Below, piece by piece: positions 6,690-62,900 of a stretch of 63,997 nucleotides of DNA (position 1 is the first letter of the stretch; every line of letters begins with the position of its first letter). The position numbers and the translations under genes are program-made. Where the stretch lies: positions 1 through 63,997 of the forward strand of contig JBJHCF010000031.1 of NCBI GenBank assembly GCA_050506795.1. Reading direction: 5' to 3'. Below the pieces are notes generated by a model, which saw nothing but the letters and a program-made list of their open reading frames with translations, was not told the origin of the DNA and searched no databases. The DNA is from Opitutia bacterium. Its GTDB lineage: Bacteria; Verrucomicrobiota; Verrucomicrobiia; Opitutales; T3Sed10-336.

Positions 6690-7826
6690 GCCAGCGGGCG
6701 GGATTATTATCAGCATGCCAAGAGCGAACTCGGTCTGTTCCCGGGCCGCTCTGGGTTCTTTGATGCTTTCGGCTCCGCGCGGAGATTGGAAGTACTCAAG
6801 GACACCGCGGCGGGACTGTATCGCAACGCCTCTCGGACTCTAAAGAGAGACCTGCTGGAAAACTTCCCTCAACTGGCAGGACTGGACGTCATCGCGGGAG
6901 ACGGTCACTTGCTTGCCGCGGCCTGTCATTCGAAACGCGACGAGAAGGGCCGAAAGGTCGCTGCGAACTCCTTGTACATGCTTAATGTCAGGAACGGTTT
7001 GATGTTGCCTTTGGCCCGAGTGCAAGGTGACGGTCGGTACGCTCACGAACTTCCGGTGCTTCGCGAACATTTGCCCGGGTTTCTGCAAAAACATCATCAG
7101 CGCGCCCATGCTTTGAGAAACGTGGTGATGCTTCTGGATCCGGCATTCATCGACACCGTGTTTTGGAGCAACTTCGAGGAGGCCCGCAACGCCGGTGCGC
7201 GAATGGTGATGCCGGAGAAATCAAATCTGAAGGTTTATCATTACGAGGATCTGGAATTCGACCGCGACAATCCGGTCAACACCGGAGTAATCCCGTATGA
7301 AACGGTGGGATTCGCCGCTTTCGAAAGCGCCGCCATGCATCGGGTCGTCTACCGTGACCCCGAAACCGGGCGTGTATATCGATTCCTGACCACGCTGAGC
7401 GATCTGGAGCCGGGTTTGATCGCGCTGCTGTACCTGCTACGCTGGCGGATCGAAAAAGTCTTTGATATCTTCAAAAACAAACTACACGAAACCAAGGCCT
7501 GGGGCAACGGGCCGGTATGCCAGCAGATACAGTCCCAGTTCGTCTGCATGACCCAAAACTTGATCGTGTTGTTTTGTGAAACCCTCAAAGAGCGCTTTCA
7601 AATCGAACCACTCAAGCTCTACAAGAAACGTGACAAAGCACTGGTAAAGCGCCGGAAAGAAGCCCGCCGAAAAGGCCGCTCGATCAACCCGATTCTTGAA
7701 TTACTCAGAATTCCCACCCAGTTCTCGTGTCAGTTGATCAGGGCTCTTCGAAATGGAATTCGTTCCGGAAAACGATTCCTCGATGACTTACCCGGCTTCA
7801 GGCTTGCAATGGAGGCTTACTTTTGA
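6690..7826 (+). pseudogene. IS4-like DDE transposase, 5'-truncated
   Basis: IAGDGH, YRFLTT..LYLLRWRIEKVFD (YxxRWxIE). Frame is open upstream of 6786 (ASGRDYYQH..RSGFFDAFGSARRL) and abuts intron sequence with no left end visible. Confidence 0.75.
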
Positions 7827-19408: not shown

Positions 19409-19420
19409 GAGGAACCTTTC

Positions 19421-20113
19421 ATGTGGCGAAACCTTTTTAATCTTTTCCGAAAAGACACCTTATTCACCCAGGCTCTTCGTGAGTCCCACCAGATGCTCGA
19501 TATCGACCTGGAGATGTTCGAGGCATCCGTCGAATCCCTCCGCCGTTCGGATCAAGGCGCCGGAGCCATCCGAGTCAACCTCCGCGAAATGGACAAGGAG
19601 ATCAATCGATTCGAACGCGATGTGCGCGAGAAGGTGCTCACCCACCTCGCGGTCAGCGGGCCCAGCGATCTGGCTCACGGACTGGTCCTGGTCAGCATAA
19701 TTATCGACATCGAGCGCATCGGAGACTACGCCAAGAACATCTACGACCTGGCCCGATACCACCCTGAAAAACTGCACGGAGGGAGCATGGAGGATGTGGT
19801 CGCCGACGTTGAATCCAGGACAGCCAGTCTTTTCCGCGACATGGTGGTGGCCTTCCGCGAGAACGACCAGGACAAGGCGCGAGAGATCATGAAATCCTAC
19901 AAAGGCTCGCTTTCCACCGATTGCGAAAAAATCGTCGAGCGACTGGTGGCCGGGCAAGCTCCCGATCTTACCGCGGGCAACGCGGCGGCCATCGCGTTGT
20001 ACGTGCGTTATCTGAAGCGAATCGCCGGCCACTCCCGCAACATCGTCACCAGCGTCGTCAACCCGTTCCCTCGCATCGGATATCGGGAAAAGAAGGTCAA
20101 GAAGGAGTACTGA
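19421..20113 (+). CDS. PhoU domain protein
   Basis: DKEINRFERDVR..IIDIERIGDYAKNI and YLKRIAGHSRNI repeats; follows the Na/Pi transporter. Confidence 0.85.
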   Translation: MWRNLFNLFRKDTLFTQALRESHQMLDIDLEMFEASVESLRRSDQGAGAIRVNLREMDKEINRFERDVREKVLTHLAVSGPSDLAHGLVLVSIIIDIERIGDYAKNIYDLARYHPEKLHGGSMEDVVADVESRTASLFRDMVVAFRENDQDKAREIMKSYKGSLSTDCEKIVERLVAGQAPDLTAGNAAAIALYVRYLKRIAGHSRNIVTSVVNPFPRIGYREKKVKKEY

Positions 20114-30469: not shown

Positions 30470-31309
30470 TCATCCCCGGACACGGCTCAATTCCGACCGT
30501 CCCAAAAGACGTCGGCGCACGCGGTCTGAAACCTTCTCCAATCCTGTGATCAAAAGAACGATGCAAATAATCAAAGCCAGAGTATCCTCGTACCGGAGAA
30601 TACTGGTCGACAGGTTGAGTTCGAAGCCTAGTCCGCCGCCACCGTATACCCCAAGGGCGACCGCTGATCGCATATTGACGTCAAAGGCGTAGAACCAGTT
30701 GCCCAGGACTGATGGCGCACATTGGGGAAGGATGCCGTATCGAATCGTTTGCCACCTACTCGCGCCGATTGAGTCCAGACCTTCAACCGGTCCGGGTTCA
30801 ACGGACTCAATGGCATCGGCGAAAAGTTTGCCAAAAATTCCGATGGAACCGATCGCCAGCGAAACCATCGCCGCGAAGGGCCCGAATCCGATCGCGATGA
30901 GAAGAATCAGCAGCACGATAAAATTGGGTGTCGCGCGCTCGATGCCGAAGACCGCGCGTGTCACGCTGCCGATCCATGGATGCGGCGTCGTGTTGGCGGC
31001 CGCCAAAAGAGCGAGGCCAATGGAAAGACCGCCACCGAATAACGTTCCCAGAAAAGCCATGGCCACGGTTTCTCCGATGGAAGTCAACACCGCCGGCCGT
31101 TCGGTGAATATGGAGAAATTAGGAGGCAGCATTTCCGCGGCCAAAGCCCTGACAAACGGAAGATCGCGTATCAACTGCACCGGATTGAATTCCAGAACCG
31201 CGGCGGCACCTGTCAGAAACAGCAAAAACGCTCCCACGCCAATGAGGCGACGCGTACGCTTGCGCGAGGGATGTTCGCAACGCGGCAACAATTCCGAAAG
31301 CGCGGTCAT
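30470..31309 (-). CDS. phnE: Phosphonate ABC transporter permease PhnE
   Basis: ETVAMAFLGT, GKLFADAIE...GPVEG..SIGA, FDVNMRSA..LG..GGGGLG. Confidence 0.9.
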   Translation of the reverse strand: MTALSELLPRCEHPSRKRTRRLIGVGAFLLFLTGAAAVLEFNPVQLIRDLPFVRALAAEMLPPNFSIFTERPAVLTSIGETVAMAFLGTLFGGGLSIGLALLAAANTTPHPWIGSVTRAVFGIERATPNFIVLLILLIAIGFGPFAAMVSLAIGSIGIFGKLFADAIESVEPGPVEGLDSIGASRWQTIRYGILPQCAPSVLGNWFYAFDVNMRSAVALGVYGGGGLGFELNLSTSILRYEDTLALIICIVLLITGLEKVSDRVRRRLLGRSELSRVRG

Positions 31310-32124
31310 CGGAGCCCTCCATGATCGAGGATTCGTTTCCGCAAAAAGCGGGAAACCCGTTCGGCGCCGAAAACGAGGCCCAAGGTCACCAGGATCGCGG
31401 CCATAGCCCGCTCGTACTCCATCATGGCCATCGCATAGGTTAGCTCGTATCCGATTCCTCCCGCGCCCACCGCCCCCAGCAGGACCGAAGCACGAACGTT
31501 GATTTCAAAGCGGAGGAAAGTGTTGGCGATCAACGAAGGCAAAATTGCAGGAAAAACTGCATATCGGATGACCTGCCAACGCGTCGCCCCAACCGCCTCG
31601 ACGCTTTCGATGACTTCGGGCTCAATTTCCTCCACCGCATCGGCGATCAAGCGCCCCAGCATGCCGACACTGCCGATGGCGAGAGCAAGCACTCCGGGAG
31701 CCGGTCCCACACCCATGGCGGCCACCAACAACACCAGAATGATGATCTCGGGCAACGCACGCTCTATGCCGATCACCAGTCGCGCGGCGAAACGAAGGAA
31801 CGGCGAAGCCAGGTTCCCCGCCGCTGCCAAACCGAAAAAGAACGAAATGATCAACCCCAGGGGAGTCGCGACCAGCGCCAAAAAAACAGTGACCAACGCC
31901 GGCTCGACGAGGCCGGGAAGCGCACCCCAATCCGGCGGGAACATCAGTCGCAGAACGCCCAACCCCTCGCCGAAACCGGTAACCAACAGCATCAGGTCCA
32001 CATCACACAAGCGTGCGGCCACCACCACACAAACCGCCAGCGCCACAATCCAGGGAACCGATCGCAACCAGCGGTTTCGACCATAGGATTGAATCAGGAT
32101 TTCACGTTCCGTCGCCGCGCTCAT
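31306..32124 (-). CDS. phnE: Phosphonate ABC transporter permease PhnE
   Basis: RALPE, G.GP.PGVLAL, RFEINVRASVLLGAVGAGGIG. Confidence 0.9.
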   Translation of the reverse strand: MSAATEREILIQSYGRNRWLRSVPWIVALAVCVVVAARLCDVDLMLLVTGFGEGLGVLRLMFPPDWGALPGLVEPALVTVFLALVATPLGLIISFFFGLAAAGNLASPFLRFAARLVIGIERALPEIIILVLLVAAMGVGPAPGVLALAIGSVGMLGRLIADAVEEIEPEVIESVEAVGATRWQVIRYAVFPAILPSLIANTFLRFEINVRASVLLGAVGAGGIGYELTYAMAMMEYERAMAAILVTLGLVFGAERVSRFLRKRILDHGGLR

Positions 32125-32127
32125 CGC

Positions 32128-32970
32128 TTAAACCGAAACGGATGCCTGATTGGAGGAAGATTCCGCCTCACGAGCAGCTTCCCGCTTGATGTCGTCCAAT
32201 TCGTTCCCGTAAATCCGAGCCAGGACGGCGTCGCCGGTGTCGGGGGGGCCGTCATAAACCACGCGACCTTCACGTATTCCGATAAAACGAGTGCAATAAC
32301 CGGCCGCCAGAACCGGCTGGTGAAAGACCCCCAACACCGGAGACTGTTTCGCCAACGGCGCCAGCAGACGCATAATTCCCGAAGCGTTTCGAGGGTCCAG
32401 GCTGGAGACCGGTTCGTCAGCGAGGAAAAACCAGGGATCCTGATAGATCGCGCGGGCTATCGCCACCCGCTGCATCTCGCCGCCGCTGAGCTCACCCACA
32501 CGACGCGCAGCATGCTCTTCCACTCCCACCTGCCGCAGGGCCTCCCAGGCGGCCGCGGCCTGCCGGTCATTGAATCCGAGCACCCAACTCCGCAGCGGCG
32601 TCATGAATCCGAGTCGCCCCATCATCACGTTCTCCAGGACCGTCAACTGTTTGACCAGATTCAACCCTTGAAAAATGGTCCCCAGGCTTCGTCGCAACTC
32701 ACGCAAAGACGCGGGATTCATGATTGAAGTGTCGTATATCCGGCCCTCGGGAGTTCGCCAGATCACTTTTCCACCGCTCGGCTGTAAAAGCCCGAGCAAG
32801 GAACGCAACGTAAGCGATTTGCCGGCGCCGCTCGGCCCGAGTATGGCGACAAATTCTCCGGGGCCCACCTCAAAGGAAACCCCATCCAAAAGTTTCTTTC
32901 CATTGGGCAGGACCTTGATGATGCCGTCCACGGTCAGTCCGCGGGAGTTGGAATCGCTTAATGTCATCAT
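32128..32970 (-). CDS. phnC: Phosphonate ABC transporter ATPase PhnC
   Basis: GPSGAGKS, IFQ..NLV..LTVLENVMMGRLG, LSGGEMQRVAIARA, LADEPVSSLDP. Confidence 0.9.
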   Translation of the reverse strand: MMTLSDSNSRGLTVDGIIKVLPNGKKLLDGVSFEVGPGEFVAILGPSGAGKSLTLRSLLGLLQPSGGKVIWRTPEGRIYDTSIMNPASLRELRRSLGTIFQGLNLVKQLTVLENVMMGRLGFMTPLRSWVLGFNDRQAAAAWEALRQVGVEEHAARRVGELSGGEMQRVAIARAIYQDPWFFLADEPVSSLDPRNASGIMRLLAPLAKQSPVLGVFHQPVLAAGYCTRFIGIREGRVVYDGPPDTGDAVLARIYGNELDDIKREAAREAESSSNQASVSV

Positions 32971-32972
32971 TC

Positions 32973-33902
32973 TCAGCGAATCAGACGCATGTGTTCGACG
33001 TTGCGAGCGATCGACCGCAATTCGTTATACATCTCGTCTTCCCCCGGCAGATACACCAGGTCGCGGTCGGCGTATTGGCCCGATACCACAGCCCAGACTT
33101 CGGGAGCCCTCACAGGCAAGTCGACAAATGCCGATTGAATACGCATACGCAGTTCCTCCGAAAGCCCGCCTCGAACCGCGATGGCCCCGCTGGGAATCTT
33201 TGGAGACTCCCATATGACCCTCACATTCTCTTCTGAAATACGCCCATTTTCCATGAGACGGTTGTAGGCATTGACCGAAACCGCGGCCACATCCACCCGC
33301 CGTCCTCGAACGGTCAGGACCGACGCGCCGTGGTTCATGGCGAAAATCACCCGGCTGAAATGTTGTTCAGGGCGAATCCCGTGACTTTCCAGAAAAGCGC
33401 GCGGAATGAGGTGCCCCGAAGTCGATGCCGGATCCACAAAACTAAAGATCAACTCCGATCCGCGCTCGATGACGTCATCGACAGACCTAAGCCCGGTGTT
33501 CGGATGCGTGATCAGCAACGTGGTGTAAGCCCCGGGCCCATCCTCCACAGTCCCCCGCACCACGATCGCTTGCGCACCGGCCCGCTCGGAAGCGATGAGG
33601 TAGGCAAAAGGCGGGAGGTAGCAGACATCCAGCTTACGCGAGCGCATGGCCTCCACCGCCGGCGCATAGCTGCTGGTCTCCCGTAGGCGCACCGGCATAC
33701 CGAGCTCTTTTTCAAGATAGCCGCGCAACGCCTCGAACGAAGTCAGCACACGTTCCGGATCCTCATGCGAGGGAACAAAGCCCACCCGCAATTCCGTGAC
33801 CGGCGTTTCCTCATCACCCAGGTCGAACGCGTCCCGGGGCATCATGATCACCCATCCGGTCGCGGCGATGAAAATCAGACTGAACAGTATCTTGGTCACC
33901 AT
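32973..33902 (-). CDS. phnD: Phosphate/phosphite/phosphonate ABC substrate-binding protein PhnD
   Basis: LRVGFVP, Y...VEAM, FVDPASTSGHLIP, H..SV..V, W.SP.IP; start reassigned to MVTKILF. Confidence 0.9.
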   Translation of the reverse strand: MVTKILFSLIFIAATGWVIMMPRDAFDLGDEETPVTELRVGFVPSHEDPERVLTSFEALRGYLEKELGMPVRLRETSSYAPAVEAMRSRKLDVCYLPPFAYLIASERAGAQAIVVRGTVEDGPGAYTTLLITHPNTGLRSVDDVIERGSELIFSFVDPASTSGHLIPRAFLESHGIRPEQHFSRVIFAMNHGASVLTVRGRRVDVAAVSVNAYNRLMENGRISEENVRVIWESPKIPSGAIAVRGGLSEELRMRIQSAFVDLPVRAPEVWAVVSGQYADRDLVYLPGEDEMYNELRSIARNVEHMRLIR

Positions 33903-33904
33903 GG

Positions 33905-35530
33905 TCAAGCGGTCACCACCAGACTTCGAACCGCCCTGTCGGTTTGCCCGAACAGATCGGTTGTTTCCACCTCGATCGCGTACACACCTGCCGGAAGATC
34001 GGCGGGCAAACGGCTTTTCCACAGGTGACGGCAGGGTTGTGCCTGTGCCAACCGCCGGAAAGGTCTCTCCAAACTTTGACTCTCTTCCCGCATTTTCACG
34101 TAAAGCGGACAGGGCTCCATCGTCATTTCCATCGGCAGCCAATCCCCCTGATTCCCGAATCGAACGCGCACTTCCGACCGTTCCGAACCGCCGAAGACAT
34201 TGGCGAAAACCACGGTCTCTCCCAATTGCGATCGAAGAACCGATTCCGGGCAAACAATGTTGATTTGATAACCGGAATCCCGCCGCGAGGCTTTGTAGCG
34301 CAACGTGTAGCCATCACCGCGGAACCGGCATATGGTGTATCCGCGCGGAGCACCATCACGCATCGTGGCGTGCGGAACGCCGAGTTCGTCGGGTCCACCA
34401 CTCCACCAGGCGCCGCAGGTGGTGACATTTACCGAGTGGTGCAGCGGCTCACTTCCCTCCCAGCCATGCTCCGGTCCGAGGAAATTGTGTTCGTTCCAAT
34501 GGGTGTGGGCCGAGGTGGCGAAAAGAAGTCGACGATTACGCAAAGGCGCCAGCAAGGCTTCACGGTTGGTGACAAGGGTACGCGGACTTTCGCGTCCGCT
34601 GTCCAAAGGAATATGCATCACTAAAACAATCGGCTGATCCGGACTCAAGGTCCTGAGATCGTTCTCCACGAACGCCAGTTGAGCCGCGCTCACTTCGCCT
34701 TGGTAATCGTTGGTCGCGGGACCACCGCCCCAAACGACCGTATTGAGCACGATAAAGTGTACGGGGCCATAATTGAAGGCATAGTAATCCGGCCCGAAGT
34801 GAGCTTTATAACTATCCGCCGCATGGGTGTCATCCGCGGCGCCGAAATCAATGTCATGATTGCCGAAGAGATACCACATCGGCATACCGGCCTGTCCCAA
34901 CACCTTGCTGATGTCGCCGAAAAGGTCCGGACGATCGAAGACAATATCTCCAAGGCATAAAGAAAAAGCCGCACGACTCCGACGAAGCTCACTCACCAGA
35001 TCGTCCGCCAGGTAACGGATCTCACGCCGGTCGCGAACCTGCGGGTCGCCAAGGAACAGACAGGTGAAGTCCTCCGACTCCTGGTCTCTGATCAAAGGGA
35101 AATCAATGCGTTCAGGCAACGGTCCGGTTTTCGGCAAGCCTCCGCTATCGAGACCCGGAGAACCTTCCGGCGCGTGCACGTAATAAAAGCGAGGGGTATT
35201 CACCTCGGTCAATGGAGGTCTCCAGTTCCTGGGTTTAATGACAAAAAACACCGTGTGCGGATGATTCCGAAGCGGCAACGACCACTCCCCGCGGGACCCG
35301 GTGAGGACCACCTCTTCACCATTCGATACCGCGACGCCCGGGATGCCGGGGGAGTCAGGACCGTCTCCGGAGGACGCGTCATAAACCCGTCCTCCGGCCC
35401 ATACGGATTCCGATCCCGGCCGAGCCGCCAAGGAACGGGGGAACGTGCTTGCGGCAACCAGACCAATCCCACCGGCCACGGTCCGCCGCAATGCTTCACG
35501 TCGGCTAATCGGTTTGTCCATCGGATTCAT
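33905..35530 (-). CDS. Tat-exported calcineurin-like metallophosphoesterase with N- and C-terminal accessory domains
   Basis: SRREAL Tat motif; GIPGVAVSNG, GDPQ, LGDIVFD, GNHD, MHIP, AHTH, CGAWW, DGAPRGY. Confidence 0.9.
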   Translation of the reverse strand: MNPMDKPISRREALRRTVAGGIGLVAASTFPRSLAARPGSESVWAGGRVYDASSGDGPDSPGIPGVAVSNGEEVVLTGSRGEWSLPLRNHPHTVFFVIKPRNWRPPLTEVNTPRFYYVHAPEGSPGLDSGGLPKTGPLPERIDFPLIRDQESEDFTCLFLGDPQVRDRREIRYLADDLVSELRRSRAAFSLCLGDIVFDRPDLFGDISKVLGQAGMPMWYLFGNHDIDFGAADDTHAADSYKAHFGPDYYAFNYGPVHFIVLNTVVWGGGPATNDYQGEVSAAQLAFVENDLRTLSPDQPIVLVMHIPLDSGRESPRTLVTNREALLAPLRNRRLLFATSAHTHWNEHNFLGPEHGWEGSEPLHHSVNVTTCGAWWSGGPDELGVPHATMRDGAPRGYTICRFRGDGYTLRYKASRRDSGYQINIVCPESVLRSQLGETVVFANVFGGSERSEVRVRFGNQGDWLPMEMTMEPCPLYVKMREESQSLERPFRRLAQAQPCRHLWKSRLPADLPAGVYAIEVETTDLFGQTDRAVRSLVVTA

Positions 35531-36819: not shown

Positions 36820-37914
36820 GTGCTAAAGTCACTTATCATGACCAATCATCAACTCGGAATCTTGATCTTCTTGCTACTGATACCAAGTCTAACAGTCAGC
36901 GCGGAACCGCTGGCGTATTGGTCCTTCGATGACGACTTCGCCTCGTTGAACGAGAGAACGACCTACGACGGAATACCAGTCAACGGAGCATCGATCGATC
37001 ACACTATGTCCCGATTCGGTCGCGGATCACTCCGCCTGGAACGCCCACGGGAACAATCACTACATATCCCTGCGTCGCCTTTCACCGACGGGAGCTTCAG
37101 TTATGCCATGTGGTTCTTCCTCGATCTCGACAGTCTCGGCGCCAATCAACGGTATTTTCTATTCGAAGCCAGCGACGGCGAAAACTGGCCGATATCATTG
37201 GGCTTGCGCAACTTGAACAACATTCCGGTCATCCAGGTCTTCACCCACGACGACGGCAGCCACCCATCCTCGACCCCCAACACAGCCGTTCCGATCGGCA
37301 ACGATCAACGCAAGTGGCGTCACGTGGCGGTTGGCTACAATGCCAAGACGCGTCGTCATAAAATTTTCCTCGACGGTGAAACCATAGCAGTACTTCCGCT
37401 TCGTCCCGACTCCACAGGAGTTTCGAATTCATCGTACCTCAACATCGGCTCTCATCGCCTTCCGAGGGGTCGCAACTGGCACGGTTGGATAGACGAAGTG
37501 GCTATTTGGGATCGGACGCTTAGCTATCGCGAAATCAAACTCCTGCAACGGATACCGCCCAATCTTCTGGGCCATTTTCGACATTCAGGGTACTCCGATT
37601 GGATAGAGCGTCTTGAACTCTATCCCGAACTCGCAATCCCCAAAGCGGATCCAGACGGCACCGGAACGACAAACCTCGAGCGTTACGCTCTTGTCAACCG
37701 CGCCAATGAACACGGAGGGCAAGTCCTTTCGATCACAAAGACCTCAATCGACGGGGCGAAAGGCATCCATATCATGGCCGAGAAGAACCCGGAGTCGAGG
37801 GGAGTGACCTATCTACTGGAAACCAGCGAAGACCTTGAAGATTGGCGAAAGTCCCAGGCGGAACGGATCGAGGATATTCCGGGAGTTCTGATCTGGGAAG
37901 AAGCCATCCCTTGA
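36820..37914 (+). CDS. Secreted LamG-like jellyroll protein with an apparently incomplete C-terminal domain
   Basis: Signal peptide; LAYWSFDD, WRHVAV.Y, IFLDG, LNIG, W.GWIDEVAIWDRTLS; then ADPDG.G.TNLERYAL and YLLETSEDLEDW; likely start ATG 36838. Confidence 0.8.
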   Translation: MLKSLIMTNHQLGILIFLLLIPSLTVSAEPLAYWSFDDDFASLNERTTYDGIPVNGASIDHTMSRFGRGSLRLERPREQSLHIPASPFTDGSFSYAMWFFLDLDSLGANQRYFLFEASDGENWPISLGLRNLNNIPVIQVFTHDDGSHPSSTPNTAVPIGNDQRKWRHVAVGYNAKTRRHKIFLDGETIAVLPLRPDSTGVSNSSYLNIGSHRLPRGRNWHGWIDEVAIWDRTLSYREIKLLQRIPPNLLGHFRHSGYSDWIERLELYPELAIPKADPDGTGTTNLERYALVNRANEHGGQVLSITKTSIDGAKGIHIMAEKNPESRGVTYLLETSEDLEDWRKSQAERIEDIPGVLIWEEAIP

Positions 37915-37976
37915 GTCTTGCATCCACGTCGTCCGTCGAACCTCGATGTCACTCGTTCTCCTTACAGGCGCTACTA

Positions 37977-38942
37977 CTACCGGAACGAAAGATTTAAATT
38001 CATGGGCCCCCAATTCGGCTGACGCTCCCCAAGACCCACAATCTCCATCACTCCATTGCCCGGGAATTTTACCAAAGCGGCGGCTTTGTCGGGTCCATTG
38101 ACCGTGGCCACGACGCCAATGTAATGAATGCCATTGATATTGAAATAACCTCCCGCGTGCCGGTGACCGTAAAAAACCGCCACCACATTGCCGCTCTCCT
38201 CGAACAATCGGCGAAGTTCCGACGCATTCGAAATCATATGATTTGGTGAGACACCATCGAGGCACTGATGCGAGAAAACGACCACCGGCAACCGGGAGTT
38301 CGCGGCATCCTCAAGTGTGTTTTTCATCCATTCGACTTGTTCCGAAGGAACGAATGCGTCCGTCCAATTGAAATTTCCTCGGTCGTAGGGAACTCCGTCC
38401 TGACGAAAATTCGGGTCGAGAACAACAAATCGGTAACCCCCACGATCGAAAAAATAGTGCGGTGCCTTAAACGTGCCTGAGGTGGCGGCGAGAAAATCCG
38501 CTTTCGAAAGGTTTCCCAAATCATGATTTCCCATCACGTAATGGATTGGTCCATCGAACTCCCGAAATACCCTATCCATGTCACCCAGCCACGACAACGA
38601 CATCGGGCGGCTGCCGCTTTCCTGAATCACATCTCCCAAATGTACCGCAAAACTCAGTTCGGCCTGATTGAAAACGCCAACCGATTCCTCAAGGTTTTCT
38701 TCTGAGGCTCTGAAATAACGCGGCCGATCCGTGTCCGCCAGGTCGCCAAAATGCGTATCCGCGACAAGCCCGAAGGAAATGGGATCAGGCGCCCCGAAGT
38801 CCTCCTCCAGTTTAAGACGCAGACGAAAGAAACGTCGGCTCTCGCCGCTGAGCGACACTCCCGGAAAGGCCACTGCCAGCCCACAAGCGGCAACTTGTTT
38901 CAAAAAACGACGGCGACAGGAACAATGAACCACTTGTGCCAT
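37977..38942 (-). CDS. Tat-exported metallophosphoesterase
   Basis: CRRRFLK Tat motif; ADTH, HLGD, MGNHD, FSHQ, YGHRH; start reassigned to MAQVV. Confidence 0.88.
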   Translation of the reverse strand: MAQVVHCSCRRRFLKQVAACGLAVAFPGVSLSGESRRFFRLRLKLEEDFGAPDPISFGLVADTHFGDLADTDRPRYFRASEENLEESVGVFNQAELSFAVHLGDVIQESGSRPMSLSWLGDMDRVFREFDGPIHYVMGNHDLGNLSKADFLAATSGTFKAPHYFFDRGGYRFVVLDPNFRQDGVPYDRGNFNWTDAFVPSEQVEWMKNTLEDAANSRLPVVVFSHQCLDGVSPNHMISNASELRRLFEESGNVVAVFYGHRHAGGYFNINGIHYIGVVATVNGPDKAAALVKFPGNGVMEIVGLGERQPNWGPMNLNLSFR

Positions 38943-39000
38943 ATTGGGACAATCGCGGAATCGAGTGCCAGTAGGTCTGCCGGGCTTTGCCGACAGACTC

Positions 39001-39750
39001 CTAAGGACATCGGGGGCTGTGGTGCAGACTCCGACGCAAATAATCATTCGTTTCCGCCCGGGTCACCCAACGGACACTTCCATCGGCGAAGCCCCAGTTC
39101 CAGCCCGCATCGCCGTGGTTGTTGGCCGGCTCAGGACAGTTGTTCAAATTCGGACCATCGTCGGCATCAAGCACCAGAACAGTTTGACTGGTAAGCCAAT
39201 ATGGAATCGTGCGAGGCGATTTAACCACGTCGCGAAGTTCACCCTGCGTATAAACGCCAAAATACTCGTAACTGTGGCCGCCACGGTCGTCATCTCTACC
39301 ACCACGCGCGTTTCGCTGCAAGTCACGACGGATTCCGGAGGAAACCAGTTCGCGATTAATCACGTTTCGTGTGCTGGGGCAAATGAAAACATCCAGATCA
39401 TCCACGTAATCCGGGTAGAGTGAATCCGGCGCGTCATCGGAACCAGTACTTGTCACCCACCAATACCCGGCTGTCGCCGAAGCCAGCCGCGGAGGAGGAT
39501 TGGTACCGGCATTCTCCTCGGCAAAAAGGAGCATACCATTCACTTGAGCCCGAATGTTACTGATGCATTTGCTGCGATTCGCCTGTTCCCTCACTGTGGC
39601 CACAACCGGGATCAGGATCATGGCGAGAATTCCGATGATTGCGATAACGGTCAGCAATTCTATCAAGGTGAATCCGTTCCGTTCGCCCCAATCTCCGCCT
39701 GGGGGAACTCGTGCCGGCGGATTGATATTATTCAAAAAGCGTATGTTCAT
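39001..39750 (-). CDS. Prepilin-type N-terminal cleavage/methylation protein (DUF1559/H-X9-DG-like)
   Basis: GFTLIELLTVIAIIGILA..IP....RE.A....C.SN.R; FICPS; C-terminal NHGDAGWNWGFADG. Confidence 0.9.
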   Translation of the reverse strand: MNIRFLNNINPPARVPPGGDWGERNGFTLIELLTVIAIIGILAMILIPVVATVREQANRSKCISNIRAQVNGMLLFAEENAGTNPPPRLASATAGYWWVTSTGSDDAPDSLYPDYVDDLDVFICPSTRNVINRELVSSGIRRDLQRNARGGRDDDRGGHSYEYFGVYTQGELRDVVKSPRTIPYWLTSQTVLVLDADDGPNLNNCPEPANNHGDAGWNWGFADGSVRWVTRAETNDYLRRSLHHSPRCP

Positions 39751-39785
39751 TTAATGGTCCTCACTTTGTGGTGCCGGGAACTCAT

Positions 39786-40706
39786 TCACGCCATGTTCCT
39801 GACTTTAGCGCGTCTGCGATAAGCCGCCACGATGCCGACTCCCAACGCCATTAGCAGAGCGTAGCTGGAGGGTTCGGGCACATAGGCAAGGTCGTATTTT
39901 TCTCCCAGATACCGTCCGACCTCCAACATTTCCTGTTCACTAAGCACCCTATCAAATATCAAAAATTCGGCAATGTAGCCATCCCAGAACTGGCCCGGAC
40001 TCATGCCGTCGGAACCTCCGGCGTTCGATCCGACGCGAAAGGTATTGCTGTCGGTTGCCGAGGTGTTTCCCGGATCCAGAAACGAATTATCTTCAACCAG
40101 CAACTCACCGTTTATGGAAAACGCGGAACGCGCATTTCCATAATCGATAAAGCCGGAATCAATGCCCCATTCTTCAAAAAGGCGGGTGCCGCTCGGAGTT
40201 TCGATCGATTGAAACCCGTCCGAATCATTACGCCGTCCCCCAAGCCGGTGATCGCTGGTCGCGCGGTAAAACATGGCCCGCGCGGTATTGGGTGAAGTAT
40301 CTCCGCCCGCGCTGATTCGGGAATAAAGCTGCGCCCCACTTCCAGTATTCCAACCGACGGCGAAAAATGTAATTCCGGAAATATTGTTGGTCATCCCCAG
40401 GGCGTCCGGAGAGGTCGTGTCCAACGATGAGCTGTTAAACAAAACCGCGGGCCGTCCGTTGATGACATTGTCTTGCCAAACCGGGGAATTGGTACCTGCC
40501 GCGCCGAGCGGCGTGAACACAATATCATTGTTTCCGCTGGAATCGCTCCATTGCAGAACTTCACCATCAACCGTCTGCATACTGCCCGCATTACCGGCAT
40601 CAAGCCTCAACTGGAGACCGGGAATTTCCGGAATGCTCTGCGCATGAGCTGTGCCCGCGACGGCCAGAATTAAAGAGAATAAGGGAAGGAATTTTTTCGC
40701 TGACAT
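39786..40706 (-). CDS. PEP-CTERM surface protein with a LamG-like domain
   Basis: Signal peptide; LRLDA..W.D.SGN, INGRPAV.F, G.IAE.LIFDRVLS..E...V..YL..KY; C-terminal VPEPSSYALL..RRR. Confidence 0.9.
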   Translation of the reverse strand: MSAKKFLPLFSLILAVAGTAHAQSIPEIPGLQLRLDAGNAGSMQTVDGEVLQWSDSSGNNDIVFTPLGAAGTNSPVWQDNVINGRPAVLFNSSSLDTTSPDALGMTNNISGITFFAVGWNTGSGAQLYSRISAGGDTSPNTARAMFYRATSDHRLGGRRNDSDGFQSIETPSGTRLFEEWGIDSGFIDYGNARSAFSINGELLVEDNSFLDPGNTSATDSNTFRVGSNAGGSDGMSPGQFWDGYIAEFLIFDRVLSEQEMLEVGRYLGEKYDLAYVPEPSSYALLMALGVGIVAAYRRRAKVRNMA

Positions 40707-40768
40707 AATAGTGTATCGTTCTTGATGTTTGATTGTTATTTGGAGATTTACGCCGCCGGGCAGGAAAG

Positions 40769-42832
40769 TCAGTCGATCCGGATAACGCGGAAAAAGGCAC
40801 GAGACTGGCCGTCAAAGGGAACAAAGATTCGTTCATCGATCCCAATTCCCTCGATTTCTTCGCCAAAGGGCTCCCATGGCTCGGAGAGATCAAACTTACG
40901 TTCAACTTGATACCGATTGGCCAGTTGGGTGGAGAATTGGAGTTCCAAACCGTCCACCACTTCGAAATCGATTTCCGTTTCGGTAGTAACCGCGTAGGGC
41001 AAGCCGTATTTCGTCGCCAGGTAAGCGCCGACCTGATTACGCTCTTCCAGCGAGAGAGCCCGCTCAAACAGGAGAATCTCAGCAATATCCCCATCCCAAA
41101 GCTGCCCCGGATCATCTGCCGTATTGGCTGCGATACGGAACCGGTGCGCATCGGTGGGACTTGTGTTTCCGCCTTCCGCAGCGCCTGCGGTGAATGAAAG
41201 ATTACGGTCAACCTCCGCGCCTCCAATGTACAGGAAACCTTCGGTATTCTCAAAATCGAGTACGCTGGAATCAATGCCCCACTCCTCGACCAGGCGGGGC
41301 CCGCCGATGAGCGTTTCCGTTCCGCCTTCGTCCAGCCGCCCGCCAATCGCGCGGTGATCGTTGGTCGCGCGGTAAAACATGGCCCGGGCCGCTGTCGGCG
41401 ACGCTTCGCCTCCCTTGCTGATGCGCAAATAGTTTTGCGCGCCGCTGCCGGAATTCCACCCAACCCCAAAAAAGGTCAGGGCCGGTATGTCGTTAGTAAG
41501 TGCCAGAGCAGCAGACGATTCAGATTCCAGGAAACGGCCCCCGTCAAAGATCAGAGCCGGCCTCCCGTTGATCCAGTTATTGATGCGCACCGGACGCCGC
41601 GCGGAATCCGCCTGTACGAACTCCATGTCCTCGCCATTCGCGCTGCGCCACGCATTTACGTTGGACCCCTCAAGCGACAACGTATCCGCCGCGGACGCGT
41701 CCAAATGCAAGCGCAGACCCTCAATCTCGGGGAGCTCCGGAGTCCCCGATTCCTGAGCCTGTTCGCTGACCCACTCGATCACCCGAAATGTTGACGCGTC
41801 GGCTGTTCCGGGCAATGACAACGACATCCGCTCCCCAGTACCAGCCATCGGAGTCTCCATGATACGCTGCCAATCCCCGTTGCCCAGGGTGTTGAAAATG
41901 AGATACTCTCGGCCTTCGACTGTGTCAAATTCAAGTTTTCTGACCGGACTGTCCAATTCAAGGCTGATACGCTCCACATCCGGCTCCGGCCAATCGAGAC
42001 CGTGCTTCTCCGCAAGATAGCTCCCTACCTGATTGAACTCCGCCGGAGAAAGGACCCGGTTAAAAAATAAAATCTCGGCAATATCACCCTGCCACAACTG
42101 ATCTCTCGGGGTGCGATTGTCGGAACCGACGCTCATTTCCATCGAGTCGGTGGGACTGGTCCGACCCTCGCTCAGCCAGGAGGTGGCTGATTGAATTTCG
42201 ACTCCATTGATGTGCATAAAGACGTTGTCATTCGTGTAATCGGCTATTACCGAATCGATCCCCCATTGCTCAAACAATCGAGTGCCGCTCGGGCTAATGA
42301 TGCTTTCAAAAGCGTCGCTATCCAAGCGCCTTCCACCAAATCGATGATCGTTGGTCGCACGGTAAAACATCAAACGGACCACTGTACTCGCACCTCGGAT
42401 ACGGAGAAAGTTTTGAGCGCCTCCACCGGTATTCCATCCCACTCCGAAGAATGTGACTCCGGCGATGTCGTTCGTCATCGCCCGCGCCGCCGCTGAGTCG
42501 CTGGTCAAAGAGGACGACTCAAAGCGCACCACCGGGCGATTGTTGACCGGTCGCTCCGTATTTTCTTCGCCCGAAATATACGCGGGCGCCCAATCGCCGT
42601 CCACGCCGAACTGCTCTGCGGGTACAAACACGATAGATGGATCGTTGCTGGCCCTCCACTCCACCACACGGCCATCCTGCAGACTGATTGCACTCGAGTC
42701 ACCGGCATCGAGATGAAGGGTCAATCCGGCGATCTCAGGCAACGACGGCTCGTCGCCCGCCCCGATAGAGACAAGAGGACCGGCAAATACCGCCAGACCC
42801 AGCAAAGAAATGATAACTTTTTTTCCAGACAT
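40769..42832 (-). CDS. Secreted protein with two LamG-like domains, each followed by a small 'FRV'-ending domain
   Basis: Two LPEI.GL.LHLDA..G.IAEIL.F.R.LS..E.NQVG.YLA.K.GL repeats; ends RAFFRVIRID. Confidence 0.85.
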   Translation of the reverse strand: MSGKKVIISLLGLAVFAGPLVSIGAGDEPSLPEIAGLTLHLDAGDSSAISLQDGRVVEWRASNDPSIVFVPAEQFGVDGDWAPAYISGEENTERPVNNRPVVRFESSSLTSDSAAARAMTNDIAGVTFFGVGWNTGGGAQNFLRIRGASTVVRLMFYRATNDHRFGGRRLDSDAFESIISPSGTRLFEQWGIDSVIADYTNDNVFMHINGVEIQSATSWLSEGRTSPTDSMEMSVGSDNRTPRDQLWQGDIAEILFFNRVLSPAEFNQVGSYLAEKHGLDWPEPDVERISLELDSPVRKLEFDTVEGREYLIFNTLGNGDWQRIMETPMAGTGERMSLSLPGTADASTFRVIEWVSEQAQESGTPELPEIEGLRLHLDASAADTLSLEGSNVNAWRSANGEDMEFVQADSARRPVRINNWINGRPALIFDGGRFLESESSAALALTNDIPALTFFGVGWNSGSGAQNYLRISKGGEASPTAARAMFYRATNDHRAIGGRLDEGGTETLIGGPRLVEEWGIDSSVLDFENTEGFLYIGGAEVDRNLSFTAGAAEGGNTSPTDAHRFRIAANTADDPGQLWDGDIAEILLFERALSLEERNQVGAYLATKYGLPYAVTTETEIDFEVVDGLELQFSTQLANRYQVERKFDLSEPWEPFGEEIEGIGIDERIFVPFDGQSRAFFRVIRID

Positions 42833-43222: not shown

Positions 43223-44431
43223 ATGTACCTTTCCACGCTCAGGAAACCAATTAGCACTAGAAGTGGCGGCGCGCCAGCCACCGGCATTCGATCTACTCAA
43301 ATAATTAGGTCGACAGATAAATCCATACGGACGGGAACGAGAATTCTTATGGCTGGAATAATCGCGATCCTGGCCACCGGCTGTGGGTCCTCCACGACGA
43401 GCCTGGAATGGCGGCTGACCACTGGAGACCCGGTGTCATCATCACCGGTCATTGCCCCTGATGGAAGGATCTACATCGGCTCGGAGGACTTCCATGTTCA
43501 TGCTGTGCTCCCAAATGGCACCAGACTTTGGACCTTTTCCACCAATGCCGAGGTGCGCGGTTCACCCGCGATCGGAGGCGACGGAACGATTTACGCGGGT
43601 TCGGCCGACGGCGTCCTCTACGCGCTATCGCCTTCGGGGACGGAGCGCTGGCGCTACGTTGCGGGCGTCGGACTACAGTCGTCGCCGGCACTGGCGGCCA
43701 ACGGCACAGTTTACATCGGTTGCCAGGGGGGACGCATACACGCCATAACCCCCCAAGGACGCGTGCTATGGAGGACCAATCTCGGTGGCTCCGTCGCCGC
43801 GACTGTTGCGATTGGCAACAACGGCGTCCTTTATGTCGGCACACGCACAGGAGATTTTTTCGCAATCAACACCGACGGCTCCCGGCGCTGGCATTACCAA
43901 GCGGACGGAGAAATTACGGCTTCCGCGGCCATCGGCGCACAGGGTCAGATTTATTTCGGCACTTGGGAAGGGACATTCCACGCATTGAGCCCTCGGGGTT
44001 CCGTGCTATGGACAAAATCAATCGGAGAGGCCATACGGGGCTCTCCCATAACGGGACCTGACGGAACCGTTTATTTCGGCGCGGACGATGGCCGGTTACA
44101 CGCACTGAATGCGGACGGCGGCGAACGCTGGACATTCGACGCCGGCTCAGGTATCCGCTCCGCGCCGGTTCTCGGAGCGGACGGAAGGCTTTTTGTCGGA
44201 GACCGAAGCGGCGCGTTTTGGGAAGTTAGCCCCGACGGCGAGGGGCGCCGCATCCTGACCGCTTCCTGGGAATTCGAGTCATCGCCGGCTTTAGGCCCGG
44301 ACGGGCGTTTGTACGTGGGCAACGGTGATTTTCGGCTCTACGCTTTGCGGGTATCCACCGCGCTGGCCGAGGCTCCGTGGCCAAAGTTCCGGGCCGACAA
44401 CGCGGGCACATCGAGATCACAGGCGCGGTGA
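43223..44431 (+). CDS. PQQ-like (BamB-type) beta-propeller repeat protein, probable lipoprotein
   Basis: Repeats SSPAIG.DGTIY.GS.DG.LYAL...G..RW; lipobox-like LATGC; start uncertain (possibly 43349). Confidence 0.85.
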   Translation: MYLSTLRKPISTRSGGAPATGIRSTQIIRSTDKSIRTGTRILMAGIIAILATGCGSSTTSLEWRLTTGDPVSSSPVIAPDGRIYIGSEDFHVHAVLPNGTRLWTFSTNAEVRGSPAIGGDGTIYAGSADGVLYALSPSGTERWRYVAGVGLQSSPALAANGTVYIGCQGGRIHAITPQGRVLWRTNLGGSVAATVAIGNNGVLYVGTRTGDFFAINTDGSRRWHYQADGEITASAAIGAQGQIYFGTWEGTFHALSPRGSVLWTKSIGEAIRGSPITGPDGTVYFGADDGRLHALNADGGERWTFDAGSGIRSAPVLGADGRLFVGDRSGAFWEVSPDGEGRRILTASWEFESSPALGPDGRLYVGNGDFRLYALRVSTALAEAPWPKFRADNAGTSRSQAR

Positions 44432-45899: not shown

Positions 45900-47141
45900 C
45901 TATCGAACGAGGGTTCCGTTGCAGAGAAAATCGAGAATGTCGTAATTAGGAGTTTCTCCGGTTTGAAGACGACTCCGGTAAGAATCCTGCAAACGTCGAT
46001 TGAATATCATGGGCACCGCCTGTTCATGCAGACCGCCATGTGAACGCAGGCCCGTGGAAACCGAGGAAAGATCGTGCCACTCGGGAGTTCTTCCAAGAAC
46101 CGTGTCCCGGCCGCTCAACACCACCAGATCGCCGATTCGGTCCCCGGGCAGGCGAAAGCGCGCTTCCGCTTCCGCACGATCCAGAACAAGATCAATGCCT
46201 TCCAGACTCTCCAGAAATCTCTCAGCGGGAACGACTTGTTCCGGATGTAAATAAACGGTGGCAAAAGAGCCCAATGCCCCGTGATGCACGACGTAAGGGT
46301 CCGTGATCGGCAGAATTACACGAGCACTGGTCAAACCGCTATCGTGCAGCAGCGATTCGAGGTATTGAACCCTGGGTGAGCCATCCGGCTGCGTTTTTTG
46401 GTTCATCCCGTGATCGGCTGTGATTCCCAGAAACACATCCTGACCATCAATTTCGCCCAAAGCACGGTCAATCCGAGCATAAAAATCCCTGGCTTCCGCC
46501 GCCTCGGGAGCATGCTTGTGTTGCACATAATCAGTGGTGCTCAAGTAAAGAAAGTCCGGCCGATATTCTTGCAACAGCCAGCTTCCGGCTTCAATCCCGT
46601 AAACACTGCATTCCGGATCGTAAACCCCCGGATTGGGACGCCCGATCTTCTCGGTCACCCGTTCCACCCCGTTTTCTTCCAGGGTTGTTTCATGAGCCTT
46701 TTCCACCGAAAAGCAAATGCCGTTTCGCAAATCCTTACCGAGAAGTCGGCGCAGCTTGTCTTTGGCGGTAACCACGGCCGCGGAACGCCCTGCTTGGCTG
46801 AAGGCCGAAAGCGCCGTCGGGCAACGCAGGTATTCCGGATCATTCATCATAACCTCGCGGTCCCTTTGCCGATCGTAATAAAAATTGCCGCAGATTCCAT
46901 TGATCGAGGGAGGTACTCCGGTAACCAGCGCCAAATTGTTCGGGTTGGTAAAAGAGGGTATCACCGATTTCGCGATGCCCTCCGATCCGTCGCGACAGAT
47001 TTTCCGCAGGTTCGGCATCACGTCGCGCGCCGCATCCAAGTACTCGGGAGCTGTCCCGTCGAGACAAATGAACACCACCGGTTTCTCCGGAAGGTTATAT
47101 GTGCGCTGGTTCACCGTCACGGTGTTCAAGGTCGACTTCAT
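45900..47141 (-). CDS. phnA: Phosphonoacetate hydrolase
   Basis: ICLDG, PSFTNPNN, GICGN, YLSTTDYVQHK, TADHGM, ILPITDPYVVHHGALGS, LRSHGG. Confidence 0.95.
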   Translation of the reverse strand: MKSTLNTVTVNQRTYNLPEKPVVFICLDGTAPEYLDAARDVMPNLRKICRDGSEGIAKSVIPSFTNPNNLALVTGVPPSINGICGNFYYDRQRDREVMMNDPEYLRCPTALSAFSQAGRSAAVVTAKDKLRRLLGKDLRNGICFSVEKAHETTLEENGVERVTEKIGRPNPGVYDPECSVYGIEAGSWLLQEYRPDFLYLSTTDYVQHKHAPEAAEARDFYARIDRALGEIDGQDVFLGITADHGMNQKTQPDGSPRVQYLESLLHDSGLTSARVILPITDPYVVHHGALGSFATVYLHPEQVVPAERFLESLEGIDLVLDRAEAEARFRLPGDRIGDLVVLSGRDTVLGRTPEWHDLSSVSTGLRSHGGLHEQAVPMIFNRRLQDSYRSRLQTGETPNYDILDFLCNGTLVR

Positions 47142-47296
47142 AACGAAAAAGGGCGTATACACGGCATAAGCACCGTATCCGCATCACTGTGGATCTATCG
47201 GGACATCGATTCCAAGGGCAAGACAAATATTCCTATAGAGAAATTTTATTTCTCCTCAAGAAACCATCCCGCGGCCGCCATTGTCACCTGATCCAC

Positions 47297-59976: not shown

Positions 59977-62900
59977 CTAGGGCTCCTCTCCCTCGGTGTG
60001 TTCGACCCGGAGGCGGAAGAATCGCATGCCATTGGCCGCCGGCGTCTGCATACGCCAGTGCTCGATATTTGAATCCCTTCCGATCAATTCCGGGATTCCT
60101 CCGGTTGGAATCCAGTTAACCAGGTCCAACGACTCCTCGATGAGCAAATCCACCTCCATGGCCGAGCGATTGCGCTGAAACAGAAATTCGAGCCCCCCAG
60201 GGAGGTTGCGAAGGGCCGGCAGGCTCTCACGTTGGAATTCTTCTCCCCCCAGGGCATACCAGACCAAAACCGGCACACCATCGATCAGCGACGTCCTGTC
60301 AACCTCGGATCCGCCCTCCGGGAGCACGCGTTCGCCCCAGGAGGCGAAATCCTCCATCACCGTGAGAAAAGCCTCGGGGCTTGTGAGCATACCCCGCTCA
60401 TTGGAAACCACCACCCGGTACGCCCCGGCATCAGTGAATTCGCTGTTCTCCAGCAGGATCTCCGGACCGTCAGTACCGCTTACCTTTCCGCCGGCGCCCA
60501 GGGGTTGTCCGTCCCGTAACCAGGCAAACTCCAGGTCACTCCCCAGAGCACGAACCTCAAAACTGAAGTTTGCCCCGGCTTGTACGGAAACACTGGCCGG
60601 CCAGGAGATTATCTCCGGAGCCTGGTAGGCGACTTCGATCTGCAACTGGAAGGAACGGACTCCGCTCAAACTCTCCCCGGAAACCAACACCGGAAACAAG
60701 CCTTCCTCCAGCGGCGAACCGGAGATTTCCCCGGTATCCGGATCAATCGTAAGACCGGATGGAAGGCCCTCGGCGGCGAACAATGTGGTCGTTCCGCGAA
60801 ACGCCGTTTGGTAGGAGAAAGGCGTCGAAACCACGGCGCTCACCTTAACCGGTCCGACGGGAGCGGTCGGGTCGATCGCCTCGACCACCAGCAAATGGTA
60901 CTCCGCTTCCCGGGTTTCGGCGGGAGTGGAGAGAACCACTCGGAGAGGGAAATAACCGGCGGTGGTCGCGATTCCCTCGATACGTCGGCTGGCGGAATCA
61001 AACTCCAGTTCCTCCGGCAATCCCTCAACCGACACGACCGCCTGCTCGAAATCTCCAACCAGGTCAAGCAACCGCGAAAACGGGACATTCTCTTCCGCCA
61101 CCAGCGTCCGATCGGGTCCGAAACCAGGAGGCGCCACCGCACGCGTTTCGACGTAAATATCGAGCACCTCAATTCCCGACGGCCCCCATTCACCGTCGAC
61201 AAAAACCGCCACCGGGAAAACCCCGTTCTCCAGCGGAGTACCGGAGATCTCGCCGGTTTCCTCATTTAACGACAACCCCTCGGGCAGACCGAAAGAATGG
61301 AAGATTTCGTATCGGCCTTCCGCTTCGAGGCGCCGGGAGAAGGGCTCGCCTTTCCAGGCCTCGATGGATCCGGTCGGGATTACGGACGGCGGCCAGTGCC
61401 CGTCGGTCACGCGAAGCCCACCGTGTCCCGGAAGGAAGTATCGATCGTTCAAAAAAATCACGCGGTCATGCGATCCGACCGAAGAAGGGGTTCGCAATGT
61501 CCAGTCCAGAGCATCGGTCGATGTGCGAATCTCCCAGTTGGGTCCGACCAGAAAAAACTCATCGCGCCCGTACGCGATACTGAATGCTGATCCGCCCAAG
61601 CCCCTCGGACTCACGGCCGGCCAGTTATCCCCATCAGTGGAAATACGGACCACCGCGCTGTCGGTTCGGCCGACCGCGACAAACTGTCCGTTGCCGTAAG
61701 CGACACTCCAGAAATTCTGGTCTGTATTGCTTTCCCGGATGATCCATTCACTGGCATCGTTCGACGATACAATCACCCCGTTGCGACCGACCGCGACCAG
61801 TTTCCCGTCACCATGGGCCACCGACCTCAATTCCTCTCCGACGGGCGAGCTTTCCGCCGTCCATTGCACACCGTCCGGCGAATGAACCGTCATACCGCCT
61901 TCCCCGACAGCCACAAAGCGACTCCCGTCATAAACCACCGCATTCAGACGACGAGTGGTTCCGGAAGTCCTCGGCGTCCAGTGGATACCGTTCTCGGACG
62001 AGATCACCGTTCCCGAATTCCCCACCGCCACAAAACGACCGGCGCCATGGACCACGCTCGAGAGATCACTCGAAACCGGAGAGACCACGGACGACCAGGA
62101 TCGCGCGTCCTCGGAAGTCCATACAGCGCCGGAATCGCCGACCGCCACGTAACGACCGTCGGCATGATCGAGGTCACGGGCCCGCATCACATACGATGGA
62201 ACATTAATCACGTAGCTCCAGGGATTCCCCTCCAGGACGAAGGTCATCTCCCAGGAGCTGCTTCCGTAAAGGTTTTCCGCCCGTATCGTCGCCTGATAAA
62301 CTCCGGGGCTTGCCGGCGTTCCGGTAATCGCCCCGGTCCCTGGATCGATCTCCAAACCGGGCGGAAGCCCATCGGCAGCGAAAGTGGTTTCAAAATCCAA
62401 CTCCCGCAGCTCAACGTGGTGGCTGAATAATCGGTTGGCGACGCCGTCGACATAGGGCAGGCCAACAAAAACCGGCGGAGCGCCTTCGGCAGGTTCGACA
62501 ACGATCTCCAGGATGGAGAAGGCACTGAAGGCGTTCCGGTTGCCGGCCGCTATCCGCACCGCGAACGTTCCCGCCTGAAGGGGCGCCCCGTGAATGCGTC
62601 CGGTTTCCGGGTCGATCTCCAGACCCGGCGGCAGGCCCGCCGCCACGAACTCATCGGCGCCGTCGGTAGCCTTGATCTGAAAAACGAATGGCCGTCCCTC
62701 CAGGGCGAAAGCCCGGCCTGCACTCACGATGACAGGCGGCCACATGCCGTCGCTCAGAACCGCGGCACCGTTGCTTCCGGTCAGCAGGTATTGTCCTTCG
62801 ACATACGCCAGTCCCCAGAAGGAACTGGTCGATCCCACCACCTGCCGCCGTGTCCAGTGCCGTCCGTCCTTGGACGAGGTCAGTATAGCAAATCCGCCGG

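Follow-up and report, generated by a model that had tools for sequence, protein, structure and literature searches.

A candidate domain split between neighbouring genes for a LamG protein and a Tat-type metallophosphatase in an Opitutia bacterium

Two convergent genes and a shared C-terminal module

In the 63,997-nt stretch of Opitutia bacterium DNA analysed here (contig JBJHCF010000031.1 of assembly GCA_050506795.1, hereafter the window), a gene for a protein with a LamG domain on the plus strand (36820..37914) faces a metallophosphatase gene on the minus strand (37977..38942). The LamG protein comprises 364 amino acids (aa) when read from the GTG at 36820, with an alternative ATG start at 36838. 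It matches Laminin_G_3 (PF13385) at aa 79-240 with an E-value of 2.3e-17 and 64 bits against a Pfam gathering cut-off of 27.6, and its N-terminus looks by inspection like a Sec-type signal peptide. The C-terminal ~90 residues were assigned to no family by Pfam. Alignment to a profile of the C-terminal domain (CTD) that closes ~100 exported proteins in this genome (4.9 Mb, 82 contigs) places here, at aa 276-364 (37645..37911, plus strand), what appears to be an unfinished FN3/Ig-like module.

The CTD has a recognizable layout: an ADPxGDG..N..YA motif is followed by several strands, the motif S-x-DL-x-x-W, two further strands and a final RF[FL]RLRV strand near the stop codon. A full copy, which serves as our reference, closes a large surface protein (59977..60354, minus strand) with the last strand FFRLRVEH. 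The original prediction, made from the letters of the window, had described the end of this protein as an IEESLDLVNW pattern followed by a final strand, and the sequence confirms it (...IEESLDLVNW...HWRMQTPAANGMRFFRLRVEHTEGEEP). A profile built from 42 copies of this genome found 108 domains in 105 open reading frames (ORFs), 91 of them full C-terminal copies; the remaining 17 are internal or partial, or their last strand deviates in sequence (...VRVTLP, for example). A Pfam search with five copies returned no family at E-values up to 1. AlphaFold2 modelled the copy at 59980-60354 with six strands and FFRLRVEH (residues 112-119) as the sixth, at a mean pLDDT of 77.7 and at 85-95 in the folded part. 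Foldseek retrieved nothing from the PDB for this model at an E-value of 0.001 or better, and the top match in VIA-align was an FN3 domain of a cytokine receptor (Z 8.4, root-mean-square deviation 2.6 over 82 residues). On the basis of the model we read the CTD as a generic FN3/Ig-like sandwich.

The LamG module possesses the ADPDG..N..YA motif and the strands through ...VLIWEEAIP, where the stop codon follows and one strand is missing; the C-terminus reads ...LETSEDLEDWRKSQAERIEDIPGVLIWEEAIP-stop. In HMMER, the CTD profile of the same genome matched the LamG protein with an E-value of 4e-11 over profile positions 1-72. Among the 105 CTD-bearing ORFs it is the only one that ends without a final RF[FL]RLRV-type strand, which bears out the earlier claim that the protein is cut just before an RFFRLR strand. 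As far as profile alignment can tell, the LamG module is a member of the CTD family that is cut off before the final RF[FL]R[LV]x[VLI] strand.

The metallophosphatase comprises 321 aa from the ATG at 38942, with the catalytic domain starting at ~aa 55. It is a calcineurin-like enzyme (Metallophos, PF00149, 47.4 bits; cut-off 21.5) whose metal-binding motifs D62, H64, GD 103-104 and GNHD 138-141 are invariant in 18 sequences of its subfamily. A profile of the phosphatase alignment A2 matched the solved structure 2nxf with an E-value of 1.5e-23; NCBIfam yielded only weak matches to cyclic-nucleotide phosphodiesterases, far below the cut-offs. By inspection, aa 1-32 (38847..38942, minus strand) look like a signal peptide of the twin-arginine translocation (Tat) type, consisting of CRRRFLK, a hydrophobic stretch and ...PGVSLS. 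We identified CRRRFLK by eye as the twin-arginine motif; R10, R11 and F13 hardly vary among the 18 sequences. This N-terminal region continues to ...PGVSLSGESRRFFRLRLKLEE, and ~10 residues on the first catalytic strand begins with ISFGLVADTH.

Between signal peptide and enzyme, at aa 36-45 (38808..38837, minus strand) and ~4 residues past the predicted cleavage site, lies RRFFRLRLKL, the candidate donor strand; after the Tat motif the protein reads ...FPGVSLSGESRRFFRLRLKLEE and then enters ISFGLVADTH. The presence of an RRFFRLR strand after the Tat signal and before the catalytic domain, as had been claimed, is thus confirmed. Against the last-strand columns of the CTD profile this segment scored 20.4 bits, compared with 14.7-21.9 bits for the 42 canonical CTDs. 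None of 2220 background N-terminal windows reached 20.4 bits, and nine reached 14.6 bits. In HMMER, the phosphatase N-termini match CTD profile positions 93-108. A post-signal strand scoring at least 14.6 bits is present in 11 of the 18 subfamily phosphatases, an F-x-R at the aligned post-signal site in 16 of the 18, and R40 is conserved like the twin arginines. The Tat motif RRxFLK (aa 10-15, 38898-38915) itself resembles the last-strand consensus RRFLRL (aa 36-41, 38820-38837), and in three subfamily members (P0009 and P0021 at residue 11, P0018 at residue 14) the best last-strand profile match lies around the Tat motif, not at the strand site.

In the 3.2 million residues of ORF translation of this genome, a strict form of the last-strand motif is present 28 times, in 23 cases at most 12 residues from the end of the ORF. 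The five copies away from an ORF end include the phosphatase, and among the three of them inspected (the phosphatase and those on contigs C37 and C9, not those on C6 and C32) it is the sole one that follows a signal peptide; judged by eye, the copy on C37 belongs to a hexosaminidase-type N-terminal domain and the one on C9 looks Hcp-type. No further split pair was found among these three.

Conservation of the split in relatives

Clear orthologues of both proteins were found in four of 40 related genomes searched. Their LamG orthologues are 45-48% and their phosphatase orthologues 59-67% identical; across the LamG orthologue alignment, identity is 39-49%. In all four relatives both genes are adjacent and co-directional with the LamG gene first, and the gaps between them, with frames assigned by eye, vary from a start/stop overlap to ~40 nt. 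E334, S336, L339 and W342 are invariant in seven LamG orthologues, which occupy CTD profile positions 1 to 72-93 in HMMER. Loci L047-L050 are these four relatives again and were counted once. In a metagenome-assembled genome from Verrucomicrobiales, an upstream protein of >1315 aa ends with ...WRVRVIPGFDNP, the phosphatase starts six bases further, and ...GGRRFLRLSL follows its Tat signal.

Overall, a LamG-type gene paired with a phosphatase gene and showing the same split was found at all seven loci with readable context, from Opitutales, Verrucomicrobiales and Akkermansiaceae. Eleven of eleven upstream-type proteins, namely the seven of alignment A1, P0053, P0054 and two locus proteins, end directly past the fifth strand plus a proline. 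Even the damaged upstream gene of the Akkermansiaceae locus still ends past the fifth strand. At that locus (L052:3188-3970), most of the second LamG domain is gone and a TAG stands exactly at the codon of the module's invariant Trp; the frame beyond it is still recognizable. The upstream gene could be either a decaying partner gene or the product of a sequencing error. One further protein, P0055 (371 aa), carries an internal copy of the module in a short form that ends with RLRLRVVE and precedes a LamG domain; this copy may have a bearing on the origin of the split.

Among the phosphatases examined, the strand is confined to this subfamily. In phosphatase homologues of at most 43% identity the signal peptide runs straight into the first catalytic strand. 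At 39 loci with phosphatases of 35-44% identity (16 from metagenomes and 23 phylum-wide, the latter drawn from a 400-genome sample of the phylum) no CTD match was detected in the flanks, and no visible phosphatase N-terminus carried the strand. Three distant homologues from the genomes of relatives (G016, G038 and G022), whose N-termini were read, lack the strand as well. In 2nxf, the closest homologue with a solved structure, the chain opens with the first catalytic strand; signal peptide and N-terminal strand are both absent. As judged from these N-termini, the strand is not part of the wider phosphatase family. The search for fused or similarly split homologues thus returned the split form at every readable locus and no fused form of the subfamily: among longer proteins there was a single distant match (34% identity, 786 aa), which is not a member of the subfamily, and long phosphatase frames of 739-1003 aa showed no CTD match in the available sequence.

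Gene order differs between this genome and the others. LamG and phosphatase genes are in tandem at six of the seven loci, and the phosphatase gene alone is flipped here. Since six of seven loci are in tandem, this is probably the older state. In two relatives with longer contigs, the LamG gene, the gene for an N_methyl protein and the gene for a 687-aa double-LamG protein keep their order and orientation. The real inversion is that of the whole phosphatase gene, and it neither creates nor destroys a fusion. Its ends must lie within the 62-bp spacer between the convergent stop codons (37915..37976), which must contain the left end, and a 58-bp spacer. No terminator-like site was found in the 62-bp spacer. 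In the convergent layout both ORFs and the strand are intact, and therefore joint action of the two proteins would be independent of read-through or synthesis as a single chain. A second single-gene inversion is located 4 kb away: the gene for a BamB-like PQQ beta-propeller protein (43223-44431, plus strand) is flipped relative to the relatives G011 and G009.

Proposed donor-strand complementation and competing explanations

The original prediction offered two explanations, docking by donor-strand complementation or an inversion that fuses the two proteins. Comparative and modelling evidence favours the first, and we consider it about 60% probable that a donor-strand type of complementation docks the Tat-exported phosphatase on the Sec-exported LamG binding protein. 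One small beta-sandwich domain would then be split over two genes. The LamG protein would leave the cytoplasm by Sec, carrying the domain through its fifth strand, and the metallophosphatase would leave in folded form by Tat. Cleavage of the signal peptide would expose a new phosphatase N-terminus, the sixth strand RRFFRLRL, which would insert into the unfinished LamG domain and hold the phosphatase on the LamG protein, either in the periplasm or on the cell surface. Each protein would thus be exported by its own route, and the two would probably join afterwards. From the observed complementarity of the two sequences, its conservation, its single occurrence in this genome and a strand that is disordered when the phosphatase is modelled by itself, we infer binding, the signal-peptide cleavage sites, the Sec route of LamG and a reason for the split. 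As for this reason, we suggest that a dimetal enzyme folds and is loaded with metal before Tat export and that LamG-type proteins, which reach up to 1862 aa in relatives, need Sec.

When the phosphatase was modelled on its own with AlphaFold2, the catalytic core reached a pLDDT of ~95, whereas residues 21-47 stayed <50 and formed no secondary structure. For the complex, LamG aa 246-364 and phosphatase aa 30-321 were submitted with our own alignments. Three runs gave ipSAE values of 0.49, 0.48 and 0.49, and the best of three controls gave 0.00. In a benchmark that applies only approximately here because of our own alignments, 116 of 157 solved complexes and two of 215 mismatched pairs attained the mark; at ipSAE values of 0.60 or lower there were only 18 of the 157 solved complexes and both mismatches that passed. 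The runs shared at least 88% of contacts, and the phosphatase had a pLDDT of at least 90. The LamG piece reached 73-74 with its own phosphatase and 54-57 with unrelated partners. Altogether, the complex prediction asked for with the original prediction gives weak support to the pairing; the position of the strand, and with it the completion of the beta-sheet by RRFFRLRL, was not part of the output.

Several observations weigh against strand docking. That LamG is exported by Sec was judged by eye, as were the two cleavage sites; we infer the seat of the strand in the LamG module, and the prediction output came without an interface. The related loci are few and akin. The subfamily phosphatases P0013 and P0021 lack the strand, the surroundings of their genes not being visible, and the Akkermansiaceae upstream gene carries a large deletion and an in-frame TAG next to a phosphatase that keeps its strand (...EEHQFLRLRL). 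The weak point of our analysis is the question which strand the LamG protein lacks. In ungapped profile scores its tail is low for both candidates, with 1.9 bits on the fifth-strand and -1.4 bits on the last-strand columns. With 1.9 bits, the tail of this genome (G000) is the most divergent, and it has no Arg of the R-x-x-x-P pattern. The fifth-strand score is the higher one in five of seven LamG orthologues; the two are equal in one and slightly reversed in another. Furthermore, the canonical score ranges stem from the same 42 sequences from which the profile was built. Finally, global MAFFT alignment sets the LamG tails beneath the last-strand columns with an internal gap of 24 columns, and therefore, going by sequence alone, the domain could be a short variant that is complete in itself.

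The strongest alternative, which we nevertheless regard as unlikely, takes up this last point: the LamG module would be a complete, shorter variant with a degenerate last strand, and the strand of the phosphatase would serve otherwise. It could be left over from an ancient gene fission, act as a signal to a machinery that recognizes CTD ends, or add an extra edge strand to a CTD. Besides the MAFFT placement and the ambiguous tail scores of two of seven orthologues, the equally short internal module of P0055, which has RLRLRVVE at its end and a LamG domain directly behind it, and the weak support from a complex prediction that shows no interface speak for it. However, the short variant demands a deletion of 24 residues, whereas the distance of ~18 residues from the invariant Trp to the LamG tail fits the fifth strand, 20-22 residues from the Trp in canonical copies. 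An R-x-x-x-P or ...IP ending, which is typical of the fifth strand, was read by us in ten of the eleven tails of upstream proteins. On the last-strand columns, LamG tails score between -1.4 and 6.8 bits, but canonical CTDs at least 14.7; on the fifth-strand columns, their 1.9 to 7.3 bits compare with 3.4-10.5 bits in canonical copies. We prefer the HMMER placement over that of MAFFT because of this spacing, the fifth-strand type of ending and the ungapped profile scores. A short variant would also leave unexplained why the one CTD of 105 without a last strand stands beside the sole signal-proximal strand, a pairing repeated at seven of seven loci, and why the LamG piece gains ~18 pLDDT points with its own phosphatase only.

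The second explanation in the original prediction started from a 10-bp inverted repeat, TTCCGGGAGT, whose left arm at 37877..37886 (plus strand) and reverse-complementary right arm at 38857..38866 (minus strand) both read as PGV in their genes. The repeat is present as described. A past or switchable inversion at this site would fuse LamG and phosphatase and complete the domain in one chain; a hypothetical flip indeed yields ...EDIPGV-SLSGESRRFFRLRL..., a formally complete domain. We consider such a fusion very improbable. Both arms are at chance level: 1.5 kb contain three perfect 10-bp inverted repeats, this one included, with longer imperfect ones nearby, and two of 100 shuffles of the window contained at least two matches to the 10-bp word. 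Orthologues do not preserve the arm in the LamG gene. The ends of both genes here agree with those in all orthologues and so did not result from recombination at the repeat. Among longer proteins no fused homologue of the subfamily was found, and Pfam and/or NCBIfam scans of 45 ORFs of the window revealed no invertase-type recombinase. A 6341-nt contig of run X1, which is possibly the source sample and not independent, covers 37500-39400 with 0 differences and no joints; contigs and not raw reads were compared, and rare inverted variants are invisible in contigs. Run X2 contained short, diverged parts only. An invertible switch at the repeat was rejected on the grounds of its chance-level occurrence, the lack of an invertase in the 45 ORFs and the lack of an alternative joint in the contigs.

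An artefact, be it a sequencing error that created the LamG stop ahead of the protein's own strand or a misassembly behind the convergent layout, is the least probable explanation of all: the in-frame DNA after the TGA reads ...RRYYYRNERF by eye, which is vaguely last-strand-like, and the sole independent check possibly comes from the same sample, but this stretch reads the 3' end of the phosphatase gene in antisense, eleven of eleven upstream proteins stop at the same place and the X1 contig of a second assembly is identical. Read-through of the LamG TGA into ...RRYYYRNERF was likewise ruled out, all orthologues stopping at the same point.

If strand docking is correct, strand complementation would be used outside of pili and fibres, in the assembly of an enzyme-lectin pair with different export routes. 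It would also provide the first functional handle on a module that closes ~100 exported proteins here and has no Pfam family. Whether this can be generalized is evenly balanced in our view: the pair would then be a natural two-gene 'plug and socket' with which Verrucomicrobiota couple, once both are exported, a Tat-dependent metalloenzyme to a Sec-dependent lectin or adhesin, the last strand of the CTD would be detachable, and the module family may anchor or sort exoproteins by strand insertion or exchange. With a socket of ~90 residues and a plug of ~10 residues, the proteins would form a small natural docking pair and a candidate tool for protein engineering.

Comparison with known systems and genomic surroundings

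Secreted enzymes are held on a scaffoldin by a dedicated small module pair in the cohesin-dockerin system. The pair described here would work alike, but two complete domains interact there, whereas two chains would here reconstitute a single domain. Chaperone-usher pili (Fim/Pap) form polymers, whereas the present pair would be a 1:1 complex of enzyme and lectin. A further difference is that donor and acceptor would here be exported by Tat and Sec, respectively, both routes as well as the binding being predicted. None of the 45 ORFs scanned encodes a PapD-like chaperone or an usher. The features by which donor-strand systems are recognized, an acceptor without its terminal strand and a donor strand on a terminal extension of the partner, both appear in the two sequences. 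The likeness to the pili lies in an Ig-like domain whose missing C-terminal strand is supplied by the N-terminal extension of another exported protein (PMC11821415).

The same paper describes Tat-fimbriae ('tafi') of Haloarcula hispanica, in which the subunits are exported by Tat and an N-terminal strand freed by cleavage is proposed to complement the Ig-like domain of the neighbour (PMC11821415). This proposal rests on AlphaFold models, and one subunit has a laminin-G-like domain (PMC11821415). In contrast to the gene pair, the 'tafi' form a filament of an archaeon, every subunit of which is exported by Tat, and no enzyme is docked there; the two are likened by description only. The donor-strand exchange proposed for these haloarchaeal Tat-exported fimbriae is the nearest described case (PMC11821415). 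Our literature search returned no paper on the gene pair, on the CTD module or on a domain split between Tat and Sec substrates. Sequence and modelling evidence would make the pair a new variant of donor-strand complementation, with the binding predicted. The catalytic domain is what the enzyme shares with 2nxf and with metallophosphoesterases of the ADPRibase-Mn/CpdA type.

Next to the phosphatase gene, the region 39001..42832 (minus strand) contains the genes of the N_methyl prepilin-type protein and of the 687-aa double-LamG protein with a full CTD, the neighbours whose order and orientation are kept in two relatives. Between them, the comparison with these two relatives revealed a LamG-PEP-CTERM gene (39786..40706, minus strand) that is present in this genome only. 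Both this gene product and P0057 have the same type of LamG domain, but where the unfinished module would be they carry a PEP-CTERM anchor. One LamG binding domain thus seems, by sequence comparison, to be mounted on different surface-attachment ends.

Genes for phosphorus uptake are located at 18227-20110, 30470-35530 and 45903-47162. They encode a Na/Pi cotransporter, PhoU, PhnC, PhnD, two PhnE, a 541-aa Tat-type metallophosphatase and a type I phosphodiesterase, and the region resembles a Pho-type island. Gene content suggests a possible role of the pair in scavenging organic phosphate, which we limit to this genome because the phosphorus context is not common to the relatives examined. Transposases of the IS66 family and of the DDE_Tnp_1 type lie side by side at 4912-7823 (plus strand), ~30 kb from the gene pair. 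Elsewhere in this genome, the last ~215 bases of contig C37 (minus-strand start) contain two copies of a ~95-bp direct repeat upstream of the gene judged by eye to be hexosaminidase-like.

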